From: a virus
Length of the DNA: 64,000 bases
IMG/VR virus record: IMGVR_UViG_3300035698_019747
Coordinates: 88,403-152,402 of that record
Strand: one strand, 5' to 3'
In this document: piece after piece, positions 6,084 through 27,408 of the stretch
Position numbering within the stretch: position 1 is the first letter of the stretch
Layout of the letters: each line of letters opens with the position of its first letter
Notes under the pieces: generated by a model
Database searches by the model: none
What the model was told of the DNA's origin: nothing
What the model saw: the letters and a program-made list of their open reading frames with translations, nothing else
Position numbers and translations under genes: made by a program

Positions 6084-6434
6084 ATGGCATCACAGTTAAA
6101 TATAAGCCCACAGGATAAAAATACAACAGCTAGAGCATTTAATGATCTTATAAACCCAAATAAAGCAGAATTCCTAAAGGGTAGAGGGATTATAATCAAT
6201 TTAGATGAAGAAGGATGGGCATGCTGCAACAACTTTTTACATGAATTGAATAAAGTTTTCCAAGGGGAAAATATTGATGTAGATCCTGATCTTGGAATAG
6301 ATTTAGAAGAATTAAAGGGTTTAGTAAACCATACTGATTCTATGATATTAAGTGAAGATTTTTCTAAAATTAAATATATCCAGTTAACTCAAAGACAAAA
6401 GTATAATGAGTTCTATAAATATAGAAATATGTAG
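6084..6434 (+). CDS. hypothetical protein, tandem paralog B
   Basis: Paralog of 5743-6081. Confidence 0.75.
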   Translation: MASQLNISPQDKNTTARAFNDLINPNKAEFLKGRGIIINLDEEGWACCNNFLHELNKVFQGENIDVDPDLGIDLEELKGLVNHTDSMILSEDFSKIKYIQLTQRQKYNEFYKYRNM

Positions 6435-6545
6435 CCATCAATATTAAATATTATTATATATTTAGTATATATCATGATGTTGCACCTTTTTTATGTATTT
6501 GAAAAAATTAATATATAATATATTTAAAAAATAACTTATTTTAAA

Positions 6546-6971
6546 ATGGCTATAATTAAAAAAGTGAAAGATTTCTTTAAAAAAGATACACCTAAGGATA
6601 TGTCAAATAAACATATCACTAAAATGGATAACAATTCTGTAAATGATCAAGCAATGCCTGTTGAGAACTTCAGTGGGGTTTTAGAATATATCACTGCTGA
6701 TATACATAGAATCATTAGGTTAACTTCTTACTTGAAAAATGAACTCACTGATATTTTTGGAAAACATAATGCAAGGTATAGAGGTGAATTTTTCTATTAC
6801 GTTTGGAATTTGGAATTTGATGGAGATACTTTTTGTATATTCACCGCAAATGGGAAAGGTACTACTTTTAATATTCACGCAAACCGTGAGGAAAATAAAT
6901 CAGAAAAATGTATAAACTTCCTACGTAAAATGGATGAATTATTAATAACAATAAATAAAGATGAAAAATAA
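6546..6971 (+). CDS. hypothetical protein
   Basis: 141-aa ORF after TTAATATATA (6508-6517). Confidence 0.65.
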   Translation: MAIIKKVKDFFKKDTPKDMSNKHITKMDNNSVNDQAMPVENFSGVLEYITADIHRIIRLTSYLKNELTDIFGKHNARYRGEFFYYVWNLEFDGDTFCIFTANGKGTTFNIHANREENKSEKCINFLRKMDELLITINKDEK

Positions 6972-16227: not shown

Positions 16228-16296
16228 ATGAGAAAAATGATTTTAAATACTACATTATTAAGCATCAGCATTATTTTATTATTAATGGTGTATTGA
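16228..16296 (+). CDS. attenuator leader peptide (Leu/Ile-rich, 22 aa: MRKMILNTTLLSISIILLLMVY)
   Basis: 6 TTA Leu and 4 ATT/ATC Ile codons; directly upstream of a terminator and the tRNA-Leu(TAA)/tRNA-Ile(GAT) pair. Confidence 0.85.
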   Translation: MRKMILNTTLLSISIILLLMVY

Positions 16297-16321
16297 GTCA
16301 GTATTGAAAAATTTTTCAACG

Positions 16322-16354
16322 CCCGACTCTTAATAAGTGTCGGGTTTATTTTTT
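16322..16354 (+). terminator. attenuator terminator upstream of tRNA-Leu/tRNA-Ile
   Basis: CCCGAC-N11-GTCGGG followed by TTTATTTTTT; the 5' arm can instead pair with TATTGAGTC (16291-16299). Confidence 0.85.
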
Positions 16355-16360
16355 ATATAT

Positions 16361-16446
16361 GGTTGAGTGGTGGAATTGGTAGACACGAGGGGTTTAAAAC
16401 CCCTTGGTCAGAAATGATCGTGCGGGTTCGAGTCCCGCCTCGACTA
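16361..16446 (+). tRNA. tRNA-Leu(TAA)
   Basis: Acceptor GGTTGAG/CTCGACT, anticodon arm AGGGG-TTTAAAA-CCCCT, long variable arm, GTTCGAGTC T loop; CCA not encoded. Confidence 0.95.
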
Positions 16447-16464
16447 CTAAAAATCACATATTTT

Positions 16465-16538
16465 AGTCTAGTAGCTCAGTTGGTTAGAGCGTTTCCCTGA
16501 TAAGGAAAAGGTCGCAGGTTCAAGTCCTACCTAGACTA
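16465..16538 (+). tRNA. tRNA-Ile(GAT)
   Basis: AGTCTAG/CTAGACT, GCTC/GAGC D stem, TTTCC-CTGATAA-GGAAA; CCA not encoded. Confidence 0.95.
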
Positions 16539-16557
16539 CTAATTAAATATAATTATT

Positions 16558-16932
16558 ATGACAAGTAGAGATTTTTGCTTTTGGTTACAAGGTATATTAG
16601 AAGTTACCGAGTTAGATAAATTTAATGAAAGACAAACACATATCATTAAAACCCATCTGTCTCTTGTATTTAAACACGAGATTAATACTGATTTATCAAT
16701 GATTAAACATTTTATGGCTAGGGATTTTTGTTTCTGGTTAGATGGGGTATTTAGTGGAACTGAGTTTCTATGTTTAAATAAACCCCAAATGGTGATGATT
16801 TCTGCTAAATTATCACCAGTATTTAAACATGATATTGATCCTAGTATGGGTGATATTGAACACCAGGAAGGACTAAATAATATACATAGCTGGGATAGTG
16901 ACCCCAATTCTGATGTTAATATGAGATGTTAA
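16558..16932 (+). CDS. hypothetical protein with internal duplication
   Basis: Two copies of M..RDFCFWL.G...TE....N..Q...I...LS.VFKH.I. Confidence 0.75.
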   Translation: MTSRDFCFWLQGILEVTELDKFNERQTHIIKTHLSLVFKHEINTDLSMIKHFMARDFCFWLDGVFSGTEFLCLNKPQMVMISAKLSPVFKHDIDPSMGDIEHQEGLNNIHSWDSDPNSDVNMRC

Positions 16933-16975
16933 TTCTACAAAGTAGTATATTTATTTTAAGATAAAACCTTCAATT

Positions 16976-17209
16976 ATGATGAAATATAATGAATTACCCA
17001 AAGAAATATTATCCCCTATATCTGGTGATAAAATGAGGTTAATGGACAAGTACTACCCAAATGAATGTTTTATGTCAATAGTTAATAACTATCAAGATTC
17101 TGCTGAGTTATATGAGAATTCCGCAGCAATGTATTTATCAGAAAATGGAGAAACGATATATGTCCCATTTGATAGTGGTGACATTCCCACTAATGAGAGT
17201 CCAAATTAG
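16976..17209 (+). CDS. hypothetical protein
   Basis: 77-aa ORF. Confidence 0.55.
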   Translation: MMKYNELPKEILSPISGDKMRLMDKYYPNECFMSIVNNYQDSAELYENSAAMYLSENGETIYVPFDSGDIPTNESPN

Positions 17210-17341
17210 ATAATGATAAAAGAAATAAAGGGACTTGTATTAGGTTTTTTTATCAAATTATATCGTATTAACCTTCATATAGTTTTGTAATATATATATA
17301 AATAGTTGTATATTTGCTGATATAATAACTAAAACCACATT

Positions 17342-17515
17342 ATGATGACAGCAAAATATTATAGCAAACCCGAAAACGTATTATTTTATGACCCGATTAC
17401 AAGATTGTTAGCAAGGATATTTGGGGCTAAACACTTTGTAATTAAATGTAGGGTTTGTGGAAAGATACCCACTGAAATATACGGAGATACTTGTTTAAGC
17501 CACAAAACTAAATGA
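17342..17515 (+). CDS. small Zn-finger-like protein (not in ORF track)
   Basis: MMTAKYY...CRVCG...TCLSH; follows TATATTTG at 17309-17316. Confidence 0.5.
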   Translation: MMTAKYYSKPENVLFYDPITRLLARIFGAKHFVIKCRVCGKIPTEIYGDTCLSHKTK

Positions 17516-17688
17516 GTGTATGTTTTAACATTAACATATAAGATGGATGTGAATGGTACTGTTATCGTGTCTACTGGTTGTTCTATAATGGAGTCAAGTT
17601 ACAAAAACTTAGAAATTATGAATACATATAGTAAAAACCAAAAAGCAATGTGATAAATAAACTTTTTTTTTTATTTTAATATAACAAT

Positions 17689-17958
17689 ATGGAAAACGAT
17701 TATTATATTAAACAAAAACATCTAGATAAACTAAAACATTGCTTAAAACTTATAAGTTATAGTGGTGATAGTTTAAAAGAATTATGTGCGGAGGAAAGGT
17801 CAGATATTGTTTATGGATTTGAAATAGGTAATGTAACATCTATGTTGAATAATTGTAAAATTATGATTATGAGTTTAGAAGAAGATATATCATTATATTT
17901 GAAGCATGTAGATAATGATAGTAATAAAACTAAGTACAATACTTCTGGTGATGATTAA
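17689..17958 (+). CDS. hypothetical protein
   Basis: 89-aa ORF after TAAAC-N16-ATATA. Confidence 0.6.
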   Translation: MENDYYIKQKHLDKLKHCLKLISYSGDSLKELCAEERSDIVYGFEIGNVTSMLNNCKIMIMSLEEDISLYLKHVDNDSNKTKYNTSGDD

Positions 17959-18007
17959 TATATGAAAAAATTTTTATATATTTGTAGTCTAACTTAATAA
18001 AACAAAA

Positions 18008-18205
18008 ATGAGTAATTTTTTAGATATAGATAACCTTCCAGATGACTTCAGTGGTGTTGTAATAGTTGATTATTCACCAGTAAGTGAAAGGATGTGGGAT
18101 AAAGGAGAACAAGCACTTGTCAGAGATGGTCAAATAAGACTAAGTGGGTGTTGGTTTAATTTTGATAATAGATATAAAGTTATTTCCAATAATTGGGTAC
18201 AGTGA
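18008..18205 (+). CDS. hypothetical protein
   Basis: 65-aa ORF after TATATTTG (17977-17984). Confidence 0.6.
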   Translation: MSNFLDIDNLPDDFSGVVIVDYSPVSERMWDKGEQALVRDGQIRLSGCWFNFDNRYKVISNNWVQ

Positions 18206-18228
18206 ACTAGATGTTATAGTAATTTATT

Positions 18229-18597
18229 ATGGATAAGGAAAGTATATTTGAATTACAAAAAATAGATTGTAATTGCAATGATTGTATATTTATGATACGT
18301 GATTTAGAAAAGTATAAAGCTTCTGTCAAATTTCATCACGCTATACAATTGGAATATTTTAACAGTGTTAAATCAAAGTTGATTAAAAGAGCTAACTGGT
18401 GGCGAGTTAAGAAGAATGATTTAGAAAATTTTAATGATATTATGACTGAGGCAGACTCAATGGTTTTTCAATTTGATAAAAATGTAGTGTCTATTAATTA
18501 TGGTGACTGTAGTAAGTTAAATAAGAAAGTTTCTTTTATACCTAATACAATACAATTAGAAACACAAGATTGCTTTAAGCATAGAAGAGAATTATAA
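18229..18597 (+). CDS. Cys-rich hypothetical protein
   Basis: DCNCNDC...GDC...CFKHR. Confidence 0.65.
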   Translation: MDKESIFELQKIDCNCNDCIFMIRDLEKYKASVKFHHAIQLEYFNSVKSKLIKRANWWRVKKNDLENFNDIMTEADSMVFQFDKNVVSINYGDCSKLNKKVSFIPNTIQLETQDCFKHRREL

Positions 18598-18601
18598 ATA
18601 C

Positions 18602-18679
18602 GGTGGGAGATTAGGCTATGTGGTAAGTAGCACAAGCCTTCTAAAAGCTTGGACAGGGGTTCGACTCCCCCTCTCACCA
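18602..18679 (+). tRNA. aberrant tRNA-like gene (Arg-TCT with 9-nt loop, or CTA suppressor-like)
   Basis: GGTGGGAG/CTCTCACC acceptor, GCTA/TAGC D stem, CAAGC-CTTCTAAAA-GCTTG, GGGG-TTCGACT-CCCC. Confidence 0.6.
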
Positions 18680-18815
18680 CTTATTTTTATATTTATATAA
18701 ACAAAAATACTTAAAATGATATAATGTTAAGTACCCGACTTTGGCGGTCTGGATAAGGGGACTTAAATTTTACCTTTTGAACTATCAGGATTAACAATTA
18801 AAATTAAAAATTATT

Positions 18816-19520
18816 ATGAAAGATGATTTAGGTAAAAGAATGAAAGAAAACTATGAAATAAGAACTCGTAGTTTTCTACCAAGAAGAACAAATGTCATTA
18901 TCCGTTTAGATGGTAAGGCATTTCACACTTATACAAAAGGATTGGATAAACCCTTTGACTATAAGTTAATGGATGATATGATGGAAACAACTAAATTTTT
19001 ATGTGAAAACATACAAGGTTGTAAAATTGGATACACCCAAAGCGATGAAATATCTTTACTCTTAACAGATTATGATAACATCAAAACTTCATCTTGGTAT
19101 GATGGTCAAGTTCAGAAAATCACAAGCGTGTCAGCTAGTTTAGCTACCGCTAAATTTAACCAACTTAGACCAGAGAAATTAGCATTTTTCGATAGCAGAG
19201 TTTTCGTAATTCCTGATAAAGAAGAAGTCGTGAATTATTTTATTTGGAGACAACAAGATGCAACAAGAAATTCACTTTCTATGGCATCTCAGAGTGTTTA
19301 TTCCGATAAACAGTTGTTCAAAAAGAATTCTTCTGATAAACAAGAAATGCTAATGGAAAAGGGTATTAACTGGAATGATTATCCAGTGAGTGCTAAAAGA
19401 GGTAGTAGCGTGATTAGAAAAACTTTTGATTACGAAGAAACCACAAGGAGTAAATGGGACTATACTGACATTCCTATCATAACCAAAGATAGGGATTTTA
19501 TACTCGATTTACTGCCTTAA
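18816..19520 (+). CDS. tRNA(His) guanylyltransferase Thg1-like protein
   Basis: IIRLDGKAFH, YTQSDEISL, FDSR, YFIWRQQDATRNS, KGINWN. Confidence 0.95.
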   Translation: MKDDLGKRMKENYEIRTRSFLPRRTNVIIRLDGKAFHTYTKGLDKPFDYKLMDDMMETTKFLCENIQGCKIGYTQSDEISLLLTDYDNIKTSSWYDGQVQKITSVSASLATAKFNQLRPEKLAFFDSRVFVIPDKEEVVNYFIWRQQDATRNSLSMASQSVYSDKQLFKKNSSDKQEMLMEKGINWNDYPVSAKRGSSVIRKTFDYEETTRSKWDYTDIPIITKDRDFILDLLP

Positions 19521-19523
19521 TTA

Positions 19524-19556
19524 AAAAGAGGACTAAATATATTTTAGTCCTCTTTT
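19524..19556. terminator. bidirectional intrinsic terminator
   Basis: AAAAGAGGACTAAA...TTTAGTCCTCTTTT between convergent genes. Confidence 0.85.
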
Positions 19557-19559
19557 GTT

Positions 19560-20205
19560 TTACTTCTTTTCTTTTTTATCAAATTCTCTTTCTATATAAA
19601 GATAAAGATATTTCAAATAACGTTTTTTTGTTTTATCATTTATATTTTTTTCAATATGCAACCATAAAGGATGTTCTTTTATACCTTTTATCGCCTCTTT
19701 TATATTTTTTGGTTTTCCACTCATTGCTATATCAGACAAACTCTGTGCAAATGCCATTATTTCATCTTTATTTGAGAAATATGCTTTCATATCATTTACA
19801 TCACCTAAGAACTCACCGTGTGTTTTAACTGTCTTATTCTTCATTTGTCCATGATGTACAAACTCATGTTTTAAAATATGCAGAAACAGAATTATATCAG
19901 AGATTATAATTTTGCTTCTTACCAATAACCATTCTTATGTTATTCGTCTTAGGGTTAGTTAATCCAAATATAGGATTTATTAGGATAGAATTTGCTTCCT
20001 TTCGTTTTTTATCACTATCTAAATCTGATAAAAATTCCTTTTGGTCAACTATTTCTACATTATATTTATCACATACTTCCTTTAATTCTAAAAAGCTTAT
20101 ATTTGGAACACCTTTTATTTTGGAGTGAAGCTCATTAGATAATGCTTTATAATCTCCTGTTTCCCATTCAACGATAGATTCGGTATATTTAACTAAATAT
20201 TTCAT
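19560..20205 (-). pseudogene. frameshifted HExxH (zincin-like) protein, split into ORFs 19897-20205 and 19560-19925
   Basis: Upstream part begins MKYLVKYTES; overlapping downstream frame has only a TTG start and carries LKHEFVH...EIMAFA. Confidence 0.55.
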
Positions 20206-20250
20206 ATATAACTTACATTTTTAATATATATTAAAAAAAACTCAACAATT

Positions 20251-20433
20251 ATGATACCAATAACAATACCATATGAATTATTAATTATAGTAATATTAAC
20301 AATGATGATTCTAGCAGCAGGAGTTGAGGATGTTGCGTGGAAGGCATTCTTTTTTTTTCTTTTCATATTATCATTTGTGTTCTTAATCACAAAAATATCT
20401 GGATTGAACTTAATTATATGGGGAGCATTTTAG
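20251..20433 (+). CDS. small membrane protein
   Basis: Two hydrophobic helices. Confidence 0.45.
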   Translation: MIPITIPYELLIIVILTMMILAAGVEDVAWKAFFFFLFILSFVFLITKISGLNLIIWGAF

Positions 20434-20595
20434 AAATTTTATGTTGATATATACAAGTATCAAAAATTAGACAACTTCGCCTACTGACTCTACATCAAAG
20501 TGTGGGTCTACACACCTATTTAAATTAGTATTTAACAAGGTTTGTCTTAAACTCACACCCCCCCACTATTTAAATATTCTAATGTTTTATTATTG

Positions 20596-21318
20596 TTATT
20601 TTGTGATATTTTTCTTTAAATCTAATAAGAACCTATATAATTTAATAATACGAGCATAAGGTGTGGAATTTCTAAAAGCATTTAAATCTTTCATTATGAA
20701 TATATTACTCTTATCAAATAATTTTTTCCAATCATTATAAACCCCCATATATTCTGTATTTTTTTTAGCAAAATTCTCAAAATTTGGATACGATATATTA
20801 CCACCTTTAAATATTTCAGAAGGGGTTATTTTACTCATATTTAGAGAACCATCACTGTCTATAATATTTTTAGCATCTCTAAATGCCCTTTCTAATTCTT
20901 CAATATCATTTAAATGTAGTACAGCTTGTTCTGCGAAAACTGATAAAGGTTGCACTAATACCTTATTATCTAATGCGGGTATTATCAATTCTTCAAAGTA
21001 TGATAAGGCTTTATCTGCATTTTCTCTCTTTTTTATATCAATTAAATCTCGTCTTGTTACTTGAATGAGTTTATCTAAGTTTTTTATGAATTCTTCTGTT
21101 TCATTATTCTTAATCCAAGCACTAAACCCCTCTCCATCTAAATTAAAGTCAGTGTCTAGGTATTCATCTTGCTTTGAATTCCAATCAAAATTAAATAGGA
21201 AAAAATGACCATATTCGTCTTTTAATGTGGATTTAACATCTTCTGGAAATGAATTTATGTCTATATTATTCACATTTCCCTCATTTATATGTTCTTGTTT
21301 TGATAATAAATATTTCAT
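20596..21318 (-). CDS. hypothetical protein with capsid-targeting-like N-terminus
   Basis: MKYLLSKQEHINE start. Confidence 0.7.
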   Translation of the reverse strand: MKYLLSKQEHINEGNVNNIDINSFPEDVKSTLKDEYGHFFLFNFDWNSKQDEYLDTDFNLDGEGFSAWIKNNETEEFIKNLDKLIQVTRRDLIDIKKRENADKALSYFEELIIPALDNKVLVQPLSVFAEQAVLHLNDIEELERAFRDAKNIIDSDGSLNMSKITPSEIFKGGNISYPNFENFAKKNTEYMGVYNDWKKLFDKSNIFIMKDLNAFRNSTPYARIIKLYRFLLDLKKNITK

Positions 21319-21825
21319 TTATTTTAATAGTTTTTTTATAATACTTTCCGAGTTATTTAAAAGGTATTCTAACCCAAAGTGTTTAGGCTCTATTTCTAAT
21401 AACTCATCATATGTTACCCATTTATAACTCTCTGTTTCCCAATTTAATACTGGTTCAAAATCATCCACTAGTGCTACAAAGTTATGATAAGCAAAAACCA
21501 CTTTTTCATTTTTCTTAACTTCAAATATAGCGGCAGGTATAATTTTATGGATTTCTCCTTTATATCCAGACTCTTCTACTAATTCATTTATAGCACCTTG
21601 TATAGGACTATTGGTTTCTTGGTCATCAAGCTTACCACCCCATATACCAAATGTATTTGGTTCATTTACATACTTACTTCTAAGAGCAATTAATATCTTT
21701 CCTGATGTTGATATGGGCAAAATTCCCGCGCCAATATTCCCCCAGAAATTATCTCCTTCATTATTATCAAATACTTCGTAATTTTCAAATTTTTTTATAT
21801 ATTTCATATTTAACCTTTTTTTCAC
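21319..21825 (-). CDS. Nudix hydrolase with capsid-targeting-like N-terminus
   Basis: WGGKLD...AINELVEESG Nudix box; MKYIKKFENY (probable start 21807). Confidence 0.85.
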   Translation of the reverse strand: MKKRLNMKYIKKFENYEVFDNNEGDNFWGNIGAGILPISTSGKILIALRSKYVNEPNTFGIWGGKLDDQETNSPIQGAINELVEESGYKGEIHKIIPAAIFEVKKNEKVVFAYHNFVALVDDFEPVLNWETESYKWVTYDELLEIEPKHFGLEYLLNNSESIIKKLLK

Positions 21826-21840
21826 TTTTTTTAATTATAT

Positions 21841-22038
21841 TTGTTTATGAAAAATTTCATAATAAAATATATTTACAAAAATAATAAAGCCTTTTTCACT
21901 TTAATCGGATTGTTAATCGGATCAGTAATTGGTTACTTTATGGGACAATTACATTTAGAGCATACTTACATTATCTCAATACCATCATCAATTATTGTAT
22001 TAGCATATTTAGATATAAACGGTGGGTTAGATTTATAA
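21841..22038 (+). CDS. small membrane protein
   Basis: Two hydrophobic segments; TATATTTG at 21836-21843 implies a start at ATG 21847 or later. Confidence 0.5.
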   Translation: MFMKNFIIKYIYKNNKAFFTLIGLLIGSVIGYFMGQLHLEHTYIISIPSSIIVLAYLDINGGLDL

Positions 22039-22049
22039 ATAAATTAAAA

Positions 22050-22538
22050 TTATACTTCTGCGCCAATAGACTTAGCAACAATTGATATCGCCATAAGAAC
22101 AGCAAATGCTATAAACCATGGCTGTGCATTATATGCTGATTGCTCTATTATTGTAATTGTAGCAGAAACAATAGCCGTTATAATACCAGAACCCAGTGCT
22201 ATATTACCTAATATATTAGAAATTTTTCTAGCTATTTTTTCTACTTTATTATCTTTATCCATAGATTCTTTTAATGATATATCAAATTCACTTTTCTTAA
22301 AATCACTCATATTTATTGATGCTAAGCTATCAATAACACCATTATCGTTATTAACACCCTTTAATATACTCATAACTTCAGTCTTCACTTTATTGATAAT
22401 ATCTACTAACATATTAGCATGCTCTCCTATAAATGGTATTCTTTTAATAACATTCATTATATTACCTTCTAGTAAAATTTCATAATTATTTTTTTTAAGT
22501 TCTCTTTCAAATATTTTATATGTTTTTAAATTATTCAT
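22050..22538 (-). CDS. membrane protein (two C-terminal TM helices) downstream of the amidase
   Basis: MNNLKTYKIFE N-terminus; hydrophobic C-terminus. Confidence 0.6.
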   Translation of the reverse strand: MNNLKTYKIFERELKKNNYEILLEGNIMNVIKRIPFIGEHANMLVDIINKVKTEVMSILKGVNNDNGVIDSLASINMSDFKKSEFDISLKESMDKDNKVEKIARKISNILGNIALGSGIITAIVSATITIIEQSAYNAQPWFIAFAVLMAISIVAKSIGAEV

Positions 22539-22550
22539 ATTAAGTTTTTT

Positions 22551-23300
22551 TTATCCAATTAGCTTTTGGTCATCAATCTGCTGTATAGCTTCATAGTGAT
22601 ATTTAGCAATCTTTTTTCTTCCCTCTTCACTCATTAATATTTCCTTACATTCCCTAGGATTAGTCATAAAGAAATTCTCTGTTAGAATAGCTGGCATAAC
22701 AGTTTTAGTTAATACCCAAAACTTTGCTTCCTTATCCACATCACCATCTCTTGCATCAGTTCTTAATTTACCTAGTGGAAATTCTTCTCTCCATGTTTTG
22801 GCGAATGTATCAGCTACCTTATCACTTAATGTTTGCCCTGGACTAGTATAAACACTCCAACCTCTAGCATTTTGTCTATTAAATGCATCACTGTGTATAG
22901 AAACATAAATCATTATTCTCTTTTTCTTTCCCTTTTTTTGTTCATTTACATTTAACATATTAGCCAAATCAGTTCTTATTTTAAGAGGTGTATCTAACTG
23001 ATTATCTATAAGATTCACATAAGATATGTTTCTCTCTTCTAATTCCTTTGTGATTCTTAAAACAAAATCTCTATTAGACTCACCTTCAAAAAGCTGAGTG
23101 CCATCAGGCCATATTGGGGAACGTTTCCCTTCGGTTTGGTAGATACCATCAATGACACCACCATGACCACTATCTAAAACCCATATATAATTTGAAGAAC
23201 CCTCAAAAACAGTGTATTGATTCCCCCTATATTCTTTTGAATATTTAGTTTGGTTTGATCTTATTATTTTTGGTATTCTTGGTATTTTCCACGTTTTCAT
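22551..23300 (-). CDS. N-acetylmuramoyl-L-alanine amidase (Amidase_3), probable endolysin
   Basis: VLDSGHGG, E.N, VSIHSDA, PAILTENFFMTN. Confidence 0.92.
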   Translation of the reverse strand: MKTWKIPRIPKIIRSNQTKYSKEYRGNQYTVFEGSSNYIWVLDSGHGGVIDGIYQTEGKRSPIWPDGTQLFEGESNRDFVLRITKELEERNISYVNLIDNQLDTPLKIRTDLANMLNVNEQKKGKKKRIMIYVSIHSDAFNRQNARGWSVYTSPGQTLSDKVADTFAKTWREEFPLGKLRTDARDGDVDKEAKFWVLTKTVMPAILTENFFMTNPRECKEILMSEEGRKKIAKYHYEAIQQIDDQKLIG

Positions 23301-23333
23301 ATCATATCATATTATTTTTATATTAAGTTATAC

Positions 23334-23714
23334 TTACTCCGAATCCGAAGTCATTTTTTTAAATAAGTCTTGAATTGCTATTTTAGTACTCATTACTATA
23401 TAATCATATAAACTATTCGTTGAACCTATTTCCTCTGGGGAAGAAGTGAAATGAACAATATCACTCAAAACACTATCTATATCATTCATATTCTTTAAAT
23501 AGAAATCATACACATCACTGTCGTTTACTAGTCCTATTATAGTAGTTTCACTATCACCTATATAACTTTTCATTGTTTTTAATTGTAAGCTACTATCACC
23601 ACTATTGGTACTCTTTTTTAAGATATCAATCAATTCATTCTGAACTTCTTCAAAGTCATCTGAAATTTTAACCTTAGTTGCTAAATCCTCTCTTATTATT
23701 GTGAACTTCTTCAT
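23334..23714 (-). CDS. hypothetical late protein
   Basis: MKKFTIIRE N-terminus. Confidence 0.65.
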   Translation of the reverse strand: MKKFTIIREDLATKVKISDDFEEVQNELIDILKKSTNSGDSSLQLKTMKSYIGDSETTIIGLVNDSDVYDFYLKNMNDIDSVLSDIVHFTSSPEEIGSTNSLYDYIVMSTKIAIQDLFKKMTSDSE

Positions 23715-23959
23715 GTGTATCTTATATTATAGTTATTTAATTTATATTTTTCTAACTTTGATATGATATAATCTATATCAGTATCAGACCAAGTTATATT
23801 GCCCCCTAATGGGTATCGTTCATTATCTAGAATTTTGATAAACCTATTAGCCACCTTCACTCTCTTTTCATTTAATTTATCCTTAAAAGATTTGTCTATT
23901 CCATCGATAGTTTCTTGGTTTATATTTAGTTCAAAAAATTTTTTTAATTTCTTGGGCAT
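23711..23959 (-). CDS. hypothetical late protein
   Basis: MPKKLKKFFE N-terminus; TTAATATATA at 23986-23977. Confidence 0.6.
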   Translation of the reverse strand: MPKKLKKFFELNINQETIDGIDKSFKDKLNEKRVKVANRFIKILDNERYPLGGNITWSDTDIDYIISKLEKYKLNNYNIRYT

Positions 23960-24011
23960 ATTTCTTTTCTTTCTTTTATATATTAAAAAAAAATTGTATA
24001 TTTGTATAAAA

Positions 24012-24209
24012 TAGCCAGAGGTTGTATCGCTCCACGGAGAGGAAATTCAGGACAACATTGCTCACGGAAGGAGGGTTAGACAAAAGCCCGTTTGCACTTC
24101 CCAGGTTGCAACACGAACAGACTTAGTAGGTGAGCAATACTTTTATAGTCGGGTTAGTGGCAAATAGGTAAATGATACATTAAAACAGGATTCTGATTAC
24201 GCTCAGCTA
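24012..24209 (+). ncRNA. rnpB: compact RNase P RNA (rnpB-like)
   Basis: CR-I GAGGAAATTCAGG, CR-IV AGGTAAATGA, CR-V AACAGGATTCTGATTA; P1 TAGC..GAG/CTC.GCTA, P2 TGTATC/GATACA, P4 with compensatory changes; TATATTTG promoter at 23997-24004. Confidence 0.8.
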
Positions 24210-24252
24210 TTTTTTATTTTTAAACAAAAAAATTAAATACTAATATATACAT

Positions 24253-24801
24253 ATGAACAATAAAACAATCGCCATTTTTGATTTTGATCAAACACTTTAC
24301 ATGTGTCCACTCCCAACACCTGAGAATCGAGAGAAGCTATCTAAAGCTATAGATTATACAAGAAGTGGGTGGTGGGGCAGAGGTGAAAGCCTTAACTTAG
24401 ATGTATTTGATATACTTCCCAACCCACACATTAAGAGTCAGTATGATATACATTCTGAAATTGGTAATAAACGATTTATGCTAACTGGTAGAATCTTTCG
24501 ACTTAAAGAAGCTGTTAGAAATGTGTTTAGAAAAGATGGTTTTAGTTTCGATGGGGAATATTATGCAGATGGTAGAAGAACTATAGATTATAAATTAGCT
24601 ATTATTGATGAATTAGTTGAAACACACAATCCATCAACTATATATTTCTATGATGATAGAGAAGAACATATTCAAGAATTTCGTACTAAAGGGGACGAGT
24701 TAAAGGATACTAAAGGAATTGACTTTTACCAGTACCAAGTTTTTATTGATGGTTCTGGTATTATTGAAGTTCCATATGGACAGAAAGGGGTGGTCGAATA
24801 G
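24253..24801 (+). CDS. HAD-family phosphatase (PNK 3'-phosphatase / RNA-repair-like)
   Basis: IFDFDQTL, MLTGR, K, FYDDREEH. Confidence 0.8.
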   Translation: MNNKTIAIFDFDQTLYMCPLPTPENREKLSKAIDYTRSGWWGRGESLNLDVFDILPNPHIKSQYDIHSEIGNKRFMLTGRIFRLKEAVRNVFRKDGFSFDGEYYADGRRTIDYKLAIIDELVETHNPSTIYFYDDREEHIQEFRTKGDELKDTKGIDFYQYQVFIDGSGIIEVPYGQKGVVE

Positions 24802-24852
24802 ACCCCCTTATTTTTCACCCCATGTTTTACCACAAGATCTACATCTCTCAAT

Positions 24853-25053
24853 TTAACCACCCATTAACTCATCTACGGAAGAGTGTTTACATATATATTG
24901 CGCTTCATATTCTTTCATTTTAATGTCATTTTTATCACCTACCATTATAATCTTGCGATAATCACTTGTCTCACAACCCTCTTTGTGTTCTTTCTTTAGT
25001 GTATCATATCTCTTTTTACTTATCATAATATCCAATCTAATTTCCTCATTCAT
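24853..25053 (-). CDS. hypothetical protein
   Basis: 66-aa ORF. Confidence 0.5.
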   Translation of the reverse strand: MNEEIRLDIMISKKRYDTLKKEHKEGCETSDYRKIIMVGDKNDIKMKEYEAQYICKHSSVDELMGG

Positions 25054-25391
25054 TTATCAACACTACTTGATAATATCTTATCAATATTAGCTTTCCTTGT
25101 CTCATATATATTTTTCTCAACATATCTTCCGAGTATTGAATTACATTCTTCACCAATACTGTTATAATAAAATTCTTCTATTATAATTAATTCATAATTT
25201 TCATTTACCCCCTTAGTTACTTTTTTAACAGTTAACTTATTCATATCTATGCCTTCTGGCCAGTCAAAATATGGATTAACTGATATAACTCTCCTAATGC
25301 TTATTATATCCCCCTTACATATTTCTCCTATGATAACATCACTATTTTCTTTCATGTGTATTATATTATTTTTTGATTGAATGTTTAACAC
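25050..25391 (-). CDS. hypothetical protein
   Basis: C-terminal RKANIDKIL motif similar to RQINIDKAL in 4352-4768. Confidence 0.55.
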   Translation of the reverse strand: MLNIQSKNNIIHMKENSDVIIGEICKGDIISIRRVISVNPYFDWPEGIDMNKLTVKKVTKGVNENYELIIIEEFYYNSIGEECNSILGRYVEKNIYETRKANIDKILSSSVDK

Positions 25392-26700
25392 GCACTTCCT
25401 TCAATCTATTTGGTGTTAAATATATAATATTCTCTAAATAATTTAATTTTTTACCTATTCTGTAAGTGAATATATAAGGAGTGAATTCTTCGCCTCTAAT
25501 CTGTTTATTGAAATCTATATTTATATCCAACACTTCACTCATAGTTTTTAAAGGTTTTTTATCAACTGCAATACCAACTACTAAATCACCTATTACATGT
25601 TCCCCATTACTATATAATACAGAATCCCTACTCCCCTTTTTATTTTTTATATATACATATCCTCTATAAACAAGTTCATATCTAAATTCCACTTTTTTAA
25701 GTTCAAAATTTATAAGTGATTGTATATAAACATCATCTTTTTTAATAACACTGCCGTCTTGCACATATACAGGATAAGGCGAATTATCTATGATATATTT
25801 CATCATACTTGGTATTGTGCCATTTATAGTTCCTTTAGTTGTGAAGTAATCACTTAAATTATTTTCAAATCTAACTGATTTTTTAAGATTTTCAATTTTA
25901 TTTTTATTTATTATTAATTTAGTGACATATCTGCTTATATTTTTTATAGGATTAGTCATCTCTTCCCATTCATCAAAATGTCCGTTATTATGTGATTTAT
26001 ATCTAAATGGACTTATTTTATAATTATTTGATAATTTAGATGCATCTATTTCTAATTTTAAGAAACTTGTTGGAGCATCCCCTAGATAAGAGTTCATCAT
26101 TTTATTTCTGGTAAAAGATATCTTACCACTATTTGAAGCTATATAAGGTGAAAGCTTATCATTATCTATAATAAACTTAAATTTATTATTATCTATAATA
26201 TGATATAAATTCCCATAATTCACACCTTCAGTTATATTTGTGTTTTCTATATTTGTTATAATTGATGTTCTACCCCTTAGTTGATAAGCATAATCACTTG
26301 GTATATCTCGTTCTAAGAAACGCTTGTTTATAATTGCTCTTTTATTTGTAGCACCAGTTCTCATATATTTCTTATCCTCAGCATCAGTATTCACATGAGT
26401 GATATATATTTTTGTTGGTTTTATATTCTTTAAGAAATCTACTGTTATATCTGTTACTGTTCTTAAAATACCTATTGCATCACTTGTCCCCAATTCTTCA
26501 TATTGAGTTTTATAATTTGTCACATCATAACTTCTAGCATACTCGCCTTCAATAGCATCACCTAAATTCTCAAAATTAACGATAAATTCTAAATCATCTT
26601 TACCCTTAAATGTATATGAATAATTACCCATATCATCTTTTATAAATGATGTGAAATCATACTTCTCATTTATTTGATCATATTTAAATAAGTATTTCAT
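25366..26700 (-). CDS. multidomain late protein, central ART-like motif
   Basis: MKYLFKYDQINE N-terminus; LYHI...ISFTRN...DEWEE; starts 4 nt after TTAATATATA. Confidence 0.55.
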   Translation of the reverse strand: MKYLFKYDQINEKYDFTSFIKDDMGNYSYTFKGKDDLEFIVNFENLGDAIEGEYARSYDVTNYKTQYEELGTSDAIGILRTVTDITVDFLKNIKPTKIYITHVNTDAEDKKYMRTGATNKRAIINKRFLERDIPSDYAYQLRGRTSIITNIENTNITEGVNYGNLYHIIDNNKFKFIIDNDKLSPYIASNSGKISFTRNKMMNSYLGDAPTSFLKLEIDASKLSNNYKISPFRYKSHNNGHFDEWEEMTNPIKNISRYVTKLIINKNKIENLKKSVRFENNLSDYFTTKGTINGTIPSMMKYIIDNSPYPVYVQDGSVIKKDDVYIQSLINFELKKVEFRYELVYRGYVYIKNKKGSRDSVLYSNGEHVIGDLVVGIAVDKKPLKTMSEVLDINIDFNKQIRGEEFTPYIFTYRIGKKLNYLENIIYLTPNRLKEVRVKHSIKK

Positions 26701-26737
26701 AACATATATATTAAAAATATATATTATTATTTATTTG

Positions 26738-26809
26738 CACGCATGGTGAGACTCGAACTCACATCAACGGTTTTGGAGACCGTTATCCTACCAATTGGAC
26801 GACACACAT
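26738..26809 (-). tRNA. tRNA-Trp(CCA)
   Basis: ACGGT-CTCCAAA-ACCGT anticodon arm; G:U-rich acceptor ATGTGTG/CATGCGT. Confidence 0.9.
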
Positions 26810-26817
26810 ATTTCTTG

Positions 26818-26911
26818 TCTAGAGAACGGGATTTGAACCCGTGGAGCATACTATCTGTGTACACTCAGCCGTTTCCAAGACGACTTGCTTAAACCACTCG
26901 CACATCTCTAG
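26818..26911 (-). tRNA. tRNA-Pro(TGG) with long class-II-type variable arm
   Basis: CTAGAGA/TCTCTAG+A, GTCGT-CTTGGAA-ACGGC, 8-bp variable stem GAGTGTAC/GTATGCTC. Confidence 0.8.
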
Positions 26912-26915
26912 TTTG

Positions 26916-26988
26916 TCGGGAAGGTAGGAATCGAACCTACTAACTGATGCTTCCAATGCACCCGTGCTTAAACCTTAGTCACTTCCCG
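26916..26988 (-). tRNA. tRNA-Pro(TGG), weak D arm
   Basis: CGGGAAG/CTTCCCG+A, GGTGC-ATTGGAA-GCATC, GTAGG-TTCGATT-CCTAC. Confidence 0.75.
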
Positions 26989-26996
26989 ATATTTTG

Positions 26997-27070
26997 TATA
27001 GTAGGTGGGATTCGAACCCACGTGCTCCACATCCCAAATGTGGCGAGATAAACCTCTCCTCTACTACTAT
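26997..27070 (-). tRNA. tRNA-Pro(TGG), A1-U72
   Basis: ATAGTAG/CTACTAT+A, CCACA-TTTGGGA-TGTGG, GTGGG-TTCGAAT-CCCAC. Confidence 0.88.
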
Positions 27071-27079
27071 ATGTATTTG

Positions 27080-27150
27080 TTGGGCTAACAGGACTCGAAC
27101 CTATAATCACTCCTTCAAAGGGAGCTGTTATGCCATTTAACTATAGCCCA
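27080..27150 (-). tRNA. tRNA-Gln(TTG)
   Basis: TGGGCTA/TAGCCCA (U1-A72), CTCC-CTTTGAA-GGAG. Confidence 0.92.
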
Positions 27151-27152
27151 AT

Positions 27153-27183
27153 AAAAAACCCACTCGGTTATGAGCGGGTTTTT
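27153..27183 (-). terminator. second attenuator terminator, immediately before tRNA-Gln
   Basis: Minus strand ACCCGCTC-ATAACC-GAGTGGGT followed by a T-run. Confidence 0.8.
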
Positions 27184-27202
27184 CTGTTATATATTGTATA
27201 TA

Positions 27203-27235
27203 ACAGAAAAGTCCTCTCATAAATGAGAGGACTTT
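27203..27235 (-). terminator. first attenuator terminator
   Basis: Minus strand AAAGTCCTCTCAT-TT-ATGAGAGGACTTT then TCTGTT. Confidence 0.8.
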
Positions 27236-27256
27236 GCTTTAAAAGTTTTAAAAATC

Positions 27257-27340
27257 TCAAGCAATAGTCTCCCATCCGAATAATCTCGGTTGCGGTTGCC
27301 ATTGCTGGTTGATAGTGATATTTAAAACTAAATTTTTCAT
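27257..27340 (-). CDS. attenuator leader peptide (Gln/Trp/Pro-rich, 27 aa: MKNLVLNITINQQWQPQPRLFGWETIA)
   Basis: CAG CAA TGG CAA CCG CAA CCG run; 3' end complementary to the terminator 5' arm; upstream of Gln/Pro/Pro/Pro/Trp tRNAs. Confidence 0.9.
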   Translation of the reverse strand: MKNLVLNITINQQWQPQPRLFGWETIA

Positions 27341-27408
27341 TACTGTATATATATTATTTTTGTTGTTCCTTTCTTAATTATAGTGCAAATATATGAAAAA
27401 GTTTTATA

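Follow-up and report, generated by a model that had tools for sequence, protein, structure and literature searches.

Why phages carry transfer RNA (tRNA) genes is an old question, with codon bias, host tRNA decay and anti-tRNA immunity among the answers, and the tRNA operons of the virus record IMGVR_UViG_3300035698_019747 raise the further question of what decides when such genes are transcribed. The record is linear, 152,402 nucleotides (nt) long and an estimated 56% complete, and its last 64 kb (positions 88,403 to 152,402) form the stretch analyzed here, referred to as the window. A preliminary description of the window proposed that each of its two tRNA operons is gated by a short leader open reading frame (ORF) and a terminator, and that ribosomes stalling in the leader switch on the matching tRNAs. 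Based on the computational analyses reported below, we consider it very likely that each tRNA block is controlled by trp-type transcription attenuation, with a sensor that reads the operon's own product.

Leader, terminator and tRNA block in three units

The promoter motif, short leader, terminator and tRNAs ascribed to both window operons could all be located (Table 1). In leader 1, which precedes tRNA-Leu(UAA) and tRNA-Ile(GAU), all six Leu codons are TTA and all four Ile codons are ATT or ATC, with no ATA; with genome codon use as the model, the post hoc chance of this Leu/Ile count is 1e-5. Leader 2, on the opposite strand, contains the seven-codon run QQWQPQP (post hoc chance ~1e-8 under the same model) and precedes a block of five tRNA genes (27150-26737), namely Gln(UUG), Pro(UGG) in three copies and Trp(CCA). 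The codon counts thus bore out the match between leader codons and downstream tRNAs (Leu/Ile in one operon, Gln/Trp/Pro in the other) that had been noticed earlier.

A third unit outside the window (genome C1:53831-54452 or, in a wider delimitation, C1:53778-54452; L003:13778-14452) served as an out-of-sample test. Its leader of 25 codons contains the run SSSRSSR and is followed by a terminator 25 nt 3' of the stop codon and by a tRNA cluster (C1:53980-54452) made up of tRNA-Arg(ACG) and four tRNA-Ser genes. The leader codons match this Arg-ACG/Ser block, and the two Arg codons are CGT/CGC (2/2), although AGA dominates the genome's Arg usage. All three units share the order of promoter motif, leader of 22-27 codons, intrinsic terminator and tRNAs, and the distance from stop codon to terminator is 24-25 nt in each of them (mostly 22-35 nt among 37 units). 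The similar N-termini of the two window leaders had also been taken to suggest one reusable module; the conserved geometry fits this suggestion, whereas the N-termini may also reflect AT-rich initiation preferences.

Upstream of the leaders, an ATATATA-type motif was present in all three units, and the element TAnnTTTG, which we take to be the Bacteroidota-type -7 promoter consensus, was present in units 2 and 3. The 21-nt context of the ATATATA-type motif before leader 2 is identical before leader 3, and across the genome this motif, a candidate phage promoter, is enriched 11.6-fold 5' of ORFs, where it lies ~11 and ~27 nt ahead of the start. A sigma-70 promoter scan yielded no excess of sites (115 vs 114 expected from shuffles). 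Among the 37 units a promoter motif lies 5' of the leader in 31 and inside the spacer between terminator and tRNA in 3.

The tRNAs of these blocks have peculiarities of their own. Copies of tRNA-Pro with A37 next to a G37 copy, as in unit 2, were seen in many related phage operons, with long-arm versions in loci L136 and L168, and such variants may provide independence from m1G37 modification or evasion of nucleases. The Ser tRNAs of unit 3 form two near-duplicate pairs differing mainly in anticodon (GCU/GGA and UGA/CGA).

Matching of leaders to their operons in other phages

The layout was found again in ~80 further units of other phages. A blastn search with unit 2 pointed to a trio of huge phages in which most tRNA genes stand in blocks behind amino-acid-matched leaders (e.g., Pro/Gln/Asp, His/Phe/Trp/Lys, Arg/Ser, Glu/Tyr and Ile/Gly/Ala), and phages from IMG/VR showed different partitions of the amino acids (e.g., Pro/Gln/His, Lys/Tyr, Leu/Gln and Met/Lys/Arg). 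In the cultured Cellulophaga phage phi4:1 (KC821632), the full set of 20 amino acids is shared out among three leader units (leaders at 87065-87133, 88025-88108 and 89771-89869), with CGT in the leader of its Arg(ACG) block and AGA in that of its Arg(UCU) block, and three units in a near-identical arrangement are present in the cultured Maribacter phage Panino. Lone Met tRNAs and CUA-anticodon tRNAs were without leaders. We also observed short leaders with Gln alone (5-7 Gln codons) 5' of pure tRNA-Gln blocks in L007 (~6350-6790) and L159, the one in L007 being nested downstream of a Pro/Gln/Asp unit.

Leader-operon matching was then quantified in two sets against permuted controls. Set 1 comprised 26 units from 10 other phage genomes whose leaders were chosen by start context alone, blind to tRNA identity; the picker demanded an A at -3, and this genome's own leaders therefore fell outside the set. 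Scored on leader codons 8-20, the amino-acid match between a leader and its own operon was 0.70 vs 0.29 permuted (z 11.6) and the codon match 0.61 vs 0.24. Such a match was attained in 0 of 20,000 permutations, whether across or within genomes, and the own operon ranked first or second for 25 of the 26 leaders. Set 2 consisted of viral matches (n = 47) to a DNA pattern free of codon information, which supplied 42 distinct new leaders. A closed ORF of 16-40 codons whose end lies 43-72 nt 5' of the terminator end was present in 47/47, vs an equivalent in frame +2 in 11/47; frame +1 was uninformative as a control since the search pattern itself imposes a stop there. The 42 leaders matched their operons at 0.61 vs 0.22 permuted (z 13.5), and of the amino acids served by an operon, 95% were present in its own leader vs 36% in the control. 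The scan upstream of related phage tRNA clusters that had been suggested along with the attenuator reading thus came out in its favor.

If the matching were a coincidence of AT-rich composition and after-the-fact pattern picking, the abundance of Leu, Ile and Ser codons in the genome and the post hoc recognition of both window cases would be readily accommodated, but the out-of-sample unit 3, the z values above 11 in two blind sets and the 47 of 47 open frames make such a coincidence extremely unlikely. For the leader-tRNA matching itself, a chance origin is refuted by the two codon-blind sets and the open-frame test.

The matching extends from amino acids to isoacceptors. Where operons hold a single codon box, the leader codons follow that box for Ile (14:3 vs 4:7, p 0.02), Arg (8:0 vs 2:6, p 0.007) and Leu (5:0 vs 0:3, p 0.018).

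The distribution of the units was assessed by further searches. In phages pT24 and PAU, tRNA clusters occur without leaders; no tRNA match was obtained in phages MaF61, PTm1 and MA9V-2; the exact leader-start pattern gave 0 matches in IMG/VR; and loci centered on the Thg1 gene mostly had no leader unit within 10 kb. The set 2 pattern had 4 matches in GTDB, none convincing (three spurious and one Omnitrophica locus left uncounted), and a looser pattern had matches in 5 of 401 Bacteroidota genomes, in no case a matched leader together with a tRNA. Since these patterns have low sensitivity and detect only a minority of true units, we limit the claim to the statement that leader-tRNA units are enriched in phages, and do not claim that they are absent from bacteria. 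In the Omnitrophica contig (L193:1930-2146), a short ORF and a complementary arm accompany a single tRNA-Gly; the match is weak, there is no clear terminator hairpin, and the locus is a possible bacterial look-alike.

Predicted folding of the switch and the quantity probably sensed

The predicted antiterminator duplex between the leader's 3' part and the 5' arm of its own terminator has -13.8 kcal/mol across the 37 units vs -8.9 kcal/mol with other terminators, and synonymous recoding weakens it to -9.3 kcal/mol; in set 2 the duplex reaches -14.4 vs -9.4 kcal/mol permuted. The pairing is unit-specific (z -12.5 in the 37 units, -13.4 in set 2), and the antiterminator arm falls within the final ~10 codons of the leader, mostly 5-36 nt 5' of the stop codon, which it overlaps in unit 1. 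In co-transcriptional snapshots, i.e., folds taken before the terminator 3' arm emerges and with the ribosome either on the control codons or at the stop codon, the terminator 5' arm was sequestered at 0.72 in the former state vs 0.14 in the latter (unit 1, 0.66/0.01; unit 2, 0.80/0.17; unit 3, 0.80/0.03). When the leader of unit 2 is left untranslated, folding gives its antiterminator arm an alternative pairing with the control codons, and a protector pairing, present in units 2 and 3 (5' arm sequestered at 0.19 and 0.08 without a ribosome), would restore termination. Unit 2 has two terminators, of which T1 forms in the free and finished states; in the stalled fold, the antiterminator is joined by pairing of the T1 3' arm with the T2 5' arm, and both terminators would be disabled in the manner of a domino.

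Several observations weigh against attenuation by this switch. When the whole hairpin is folded at equilibrium with the ribosome on the control codons, the terminator has a probability of 0.77, and this probability falls below 0.5 in just 8 of the 37 units, none of them from this genome; in most units the terminator wins at equilibrium, and switching therefore depends on folding order. Unit 1 is without a strong protector hairpin (5' arm sequestered at 0.63 without a ribosome), and the protector is weak in most units, with 27/37 showing arm sequestration above 0.5 when no ribosome is present. Units of related phages are non-independent samples, the isoacceptor test in set 2 is significant for Ile only, and Ser leader codons fail to discriminate between boxes, codons of both boxes occurring even where the operon shows one box. 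In addition, units 1 and 3 have AT-rich near-matches to the phage motif in their spacers, directly 5' of the first tRNA.

These near-matches would suit an arrangement in which each short ORF is a small-protein gene in its own right, ended by its own terminator, and in which separate phage promoters just downstream drive the tRNAs, as would the hydrophobic character of leader 1, which resembles a small membrane peptide. We regard this arrangement as very unlikely because the peptide sequence is unconserved and tracks the tRNA block, the antiterminators are specific to their units, and the spacers, often just 7-25 nt long, seldom hold either motif. Inspection of the leader peptides for a common C-terminal arrest motif found none, and their sequences vary with the tRNA block. 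Together, unit 3, the leader-operon covariation, the antiterminators, the snapshot switching and the isoacceptor codon choice all agree with the attenuator reading of the preliminary description.

We next consider what the leaders may sense. The units might be ordinary amino-acid starvation attenuators borrowed from host biosynthetic operons, with the tRNAs as part of the starvation response; stall-type attenuators respond to uncharged tRNA too (PMC3082878), and the use of Ser codons from both boxes agrees with this explanation. However, the choice of Ile, Arg and Leu codons tracks the anticodon present, groupings such as Pro/Gln/His, Lys/Tyr and Leu/Gln mirror tRNA blocks and not biosynthetic pathways, long leaders sample many synonymous codons, and added tRNA would be expected to give no relief of amino-acid lack, and we therefore consider starvation sensing improbable. 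Given that the leader codons follow isoacceptors, that the groupings ignore biosynthetic pathways and that surplus tRNA cannot remedy amino-acid shortage, the leaders most likely sense the decoding capacity for each isoacceptor, which would drop when the host tRNA is destroyed or modified or when phage demand outpaces it.

In trp-type attenuation of this kind, the phage probably makes each tRNA set only when ribosomes decode the matching codons slowly. If functional charged tRNA is sufficient, the ribosome would arrive at the stop codon and cover the antiterminator arm, the terminator would form and no tRNA would be made. Slow decoding of any sampled codon would leave the ribosome lagging in the control stretch, so that the antiterminator would form first and the block would be transcribed; in unit 2, the released T1 arm would additionally disable T2. 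The fresh tRNAs would then speed leader translation and close the operon by negative feedback. For the main selective trigger, we see an even chance that it is host defence targeting tRNA, and a general balancing of tRNA supply and demand is a possible, if somewhat doubtful, main trigger. Counter-defence is plausible because tRNA-cleaving immunity is known to be overcome by phage tRNAs, T5 tRNAs countering tRNA cleavage by AriB of the PARIS system (PMC12409363). Many Bacteroidota-type phages might possess a full tRNA surveillance panel, for and against which we judge the case to be evenly poised, in which a few leaders jointly sample all sense codons and each switches on just the block that replaces host tRNAs destroyed or disabled through anti-phage immunity. 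Such a panel would amount to an RNA-only, codon-resolved and self-closing counter-defence that includes the A37 and long-arm tRNA variants.

Known attenuators and the genome setting

Leader-peptide attenuators of amino-acid operons include the trpL, hisL and leuL leaders and the multivalent thrL and ilvL leaders, and the aminoacyl-tRNA synthetase genes pheST of E. coli are likewise attenuated. In T-box riboswitches, tRNA status also decides termination, by direct binding of uncharged tRNA and with no translated leader. The phage units had no T-box match in Rfam, and the Rfam models of the Trp, Leu, Thr and Phe leaders scored 19.5-30.2 bits, below their cut-offs of 41-55. Of the 1:2, 2:3 and 3:4 pairing logic of E. 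coli pheL-pheA (PMC3082878), the 2:3 and 3:4 parts are matched in silico by the phage units and the 1:2 protector by units 2 and 3. As in other attenuators of amino-acid operons, among them the Corynebacterium ilvB upstream ORF (PMC11109978), a short leader with control codons is combined with two rival folds, the 2:3 antiterminator and the 3:4 intrinsic terminator, and ribosome position sets the sign of control; as in the multivalent leaders, several amino acids are sampled per leader. The phage units differ in that they control tRNAs, so that the product is the sensed molecule, and also in their phage location, in the splitting of the genome's tRNA set among several leaders and in codons that track isoacceptors. 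Synthetase attenuators such as the cysS uORFC-8-2 motif (PMC8632094) are alike in sensing charged tRNA through ribosome stalling and in boosting a translation component, but their output is a charging enzyme encoded on a bacterial chromosome, whereas the phage output is viral tRNA genes. Unlike arrest-peptide regulators of the TnaC, ErmCL and SecM type, the phage leaders have no conserved nascent-peptide stalling sequence. In silico, the structure of the units works like a trp/pheL attenuator, and they stand outside the biosynthetic and synthetase leader families.

The nearest precedent among tRNA genes is the Anabaena trn operon, a silent tRNA operon that is activated when translation is impaired (PMC8421152, PMC10272220). 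There, the protein repressor TrcR acts at initiation on one block without codon specificity, and the words "attenuation" and "leader" are absent from PMC8421152; compared with the trn L-array, the phage blocks are short and each stands behind its own leader. T5 tRNAs replace host tRNAs lost to immunity, a plausible purpose of the phage units as well, and differ in that the available part of PMC12409363 describes no sensing or conditional expression for them. The papers searched and two RNA-motif surveys, with few subscription papers covered, contained no description of leader-peptide attenuation of tRNA genes, in line with the novelty surmised earlier. With these units, attenuation would reach tRNA genes as well as viruses and would involve direct feedback from the product. 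A phage regulatory sequence would reveal which tRNAs are expected to run short, and each leader could serve as it stands to report the supply of functional tRNA in the course of infection. Operon boundaries and tRNA genes that are atypical or were missed may be predictable from the leaders, and since the cultured phages phi4:1 and Panino carry the system, the question is directly testable.

Table 1. Positions of the elements of units 1 and 2 and of the lone tRNA gene in the window.
Feature	Position	Strand	Basis
Two ATATATA-type motifs 5' of leader 1, candidate phage promoter	16188-16224	+	putative function
Leader ORF 1, 22 codons	16228-16296	+	
Leu(TTA)/Ile(ATT, ATC) control stretch of leader 1	16255-16284	+	
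Antiterminator arm, unit 1, overlapping leader stop codon (partner 16325-16333)	16293-16299	+	duplex -10.2 kcal/mol, snapshot fold
Intrinsic terminator, unit 1 (hairpin and U-tract)	16322-16354	+	
tRNA-Leu(UAA)	16361-16447	+	ARAGORN; Rfam 55.7 bits
tRNA-Ile(GAU)	16465-16539	+	ARAGORN; Rfam 71.1 bits
TAnnTTTG, Bacteroidota-type -7 promoter element, unit 2	27386-27393	-	presumed consensus
ATATATA-type motif immediately 5' of leader 2	27345-27355	-	
Leader ORF 2, 27 codons	27340-27257	-	
Gln/Trp/Pro control run QQWQPQP of leader 2	27307-27287	-	
Antiterminator arm, unit 2 (partner 27239-27223)	27259-27275	-	duplex -16.5 kcal/mol
Terminator T1, unit 2	27235-27208	-	
Spacer hairpin between T1 and T2, juxtaposing T1 3' arm and T2 5' arm	27182-27208	-	
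Terminator T2, unit 2	27179-27151	-	fold -18.7 kcal/mol, z -7.2
tRNA-Gln(UUG)	27079-27150	-	ARAGORN and Rfam
tRNA-Pro(UGG), G37, A1-U72	26996-27070	-	ARAGORN and Rfam
Non-canonical tRNA-Pro(UGG), A37, C1-G72	26916-26988	-	Rfam only, 37.1 bits; fold; missed by ARAGORN
Non-canonical tRNA-Pro(UGG), A37, C1-G72/A73, long variable arm	26817-26911	-	ARAGORN
tRNA-Trp(CCA)	26737-26809	-	ARAGORN and Rfam
Lone tRNA, CUA anticodon, without leader	18605-18678	+	

The record encodes a tail sheath, a large terminase, a gp32-like protein, a tRNA nucleotidyltransferase and the tRNA-His guanylyltransferase Thg1. The tail sheath is nearest to those of the huge phages LR756502 and LR745206 (~45%), followed mostly by phages of Bacteroidota hosts, and because of these relatives and the TAnnTTTG motifs we infer that the host belongs to the Bacteroidota. 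A capsid gene and a polymerase B gene were looked for in the assembled part of the genome and neither was found; the record being incomplete, more tRNA units may therefore sit in the missing part.

The tRNA with a CUA anticodon is the only tRNA of the genome without a leader. It is amber suppressor-like, its anticodon stem is closed by a C-A mismatch, and it lies just upstream of the Thg1 gene. TAG is the stop codon of 9 of 106 long ORFs, with no sign of recoding, and the extra calls made by ARAGORN at a low threshold on this genome were noise. Thg1 (window 18816-19520, +) and the tRNA nucleotidyltransferase (gene at genome C1:33508-34632, +) are phage-borne enzymes of tRNA maturation or repair, and the assembled part is without a tRNA-His. 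A structured intergenic RNA at window 24008-24213 (+) had no Rfam match (E up to 10); by eye, parts of it resemble conserved regions of RNase P RNA. At window 24253-24801 (+), 2 kb from unit 2, a HAD domain belonging to the Swiss Army Knife family of RNA-repair proteins is encoded.

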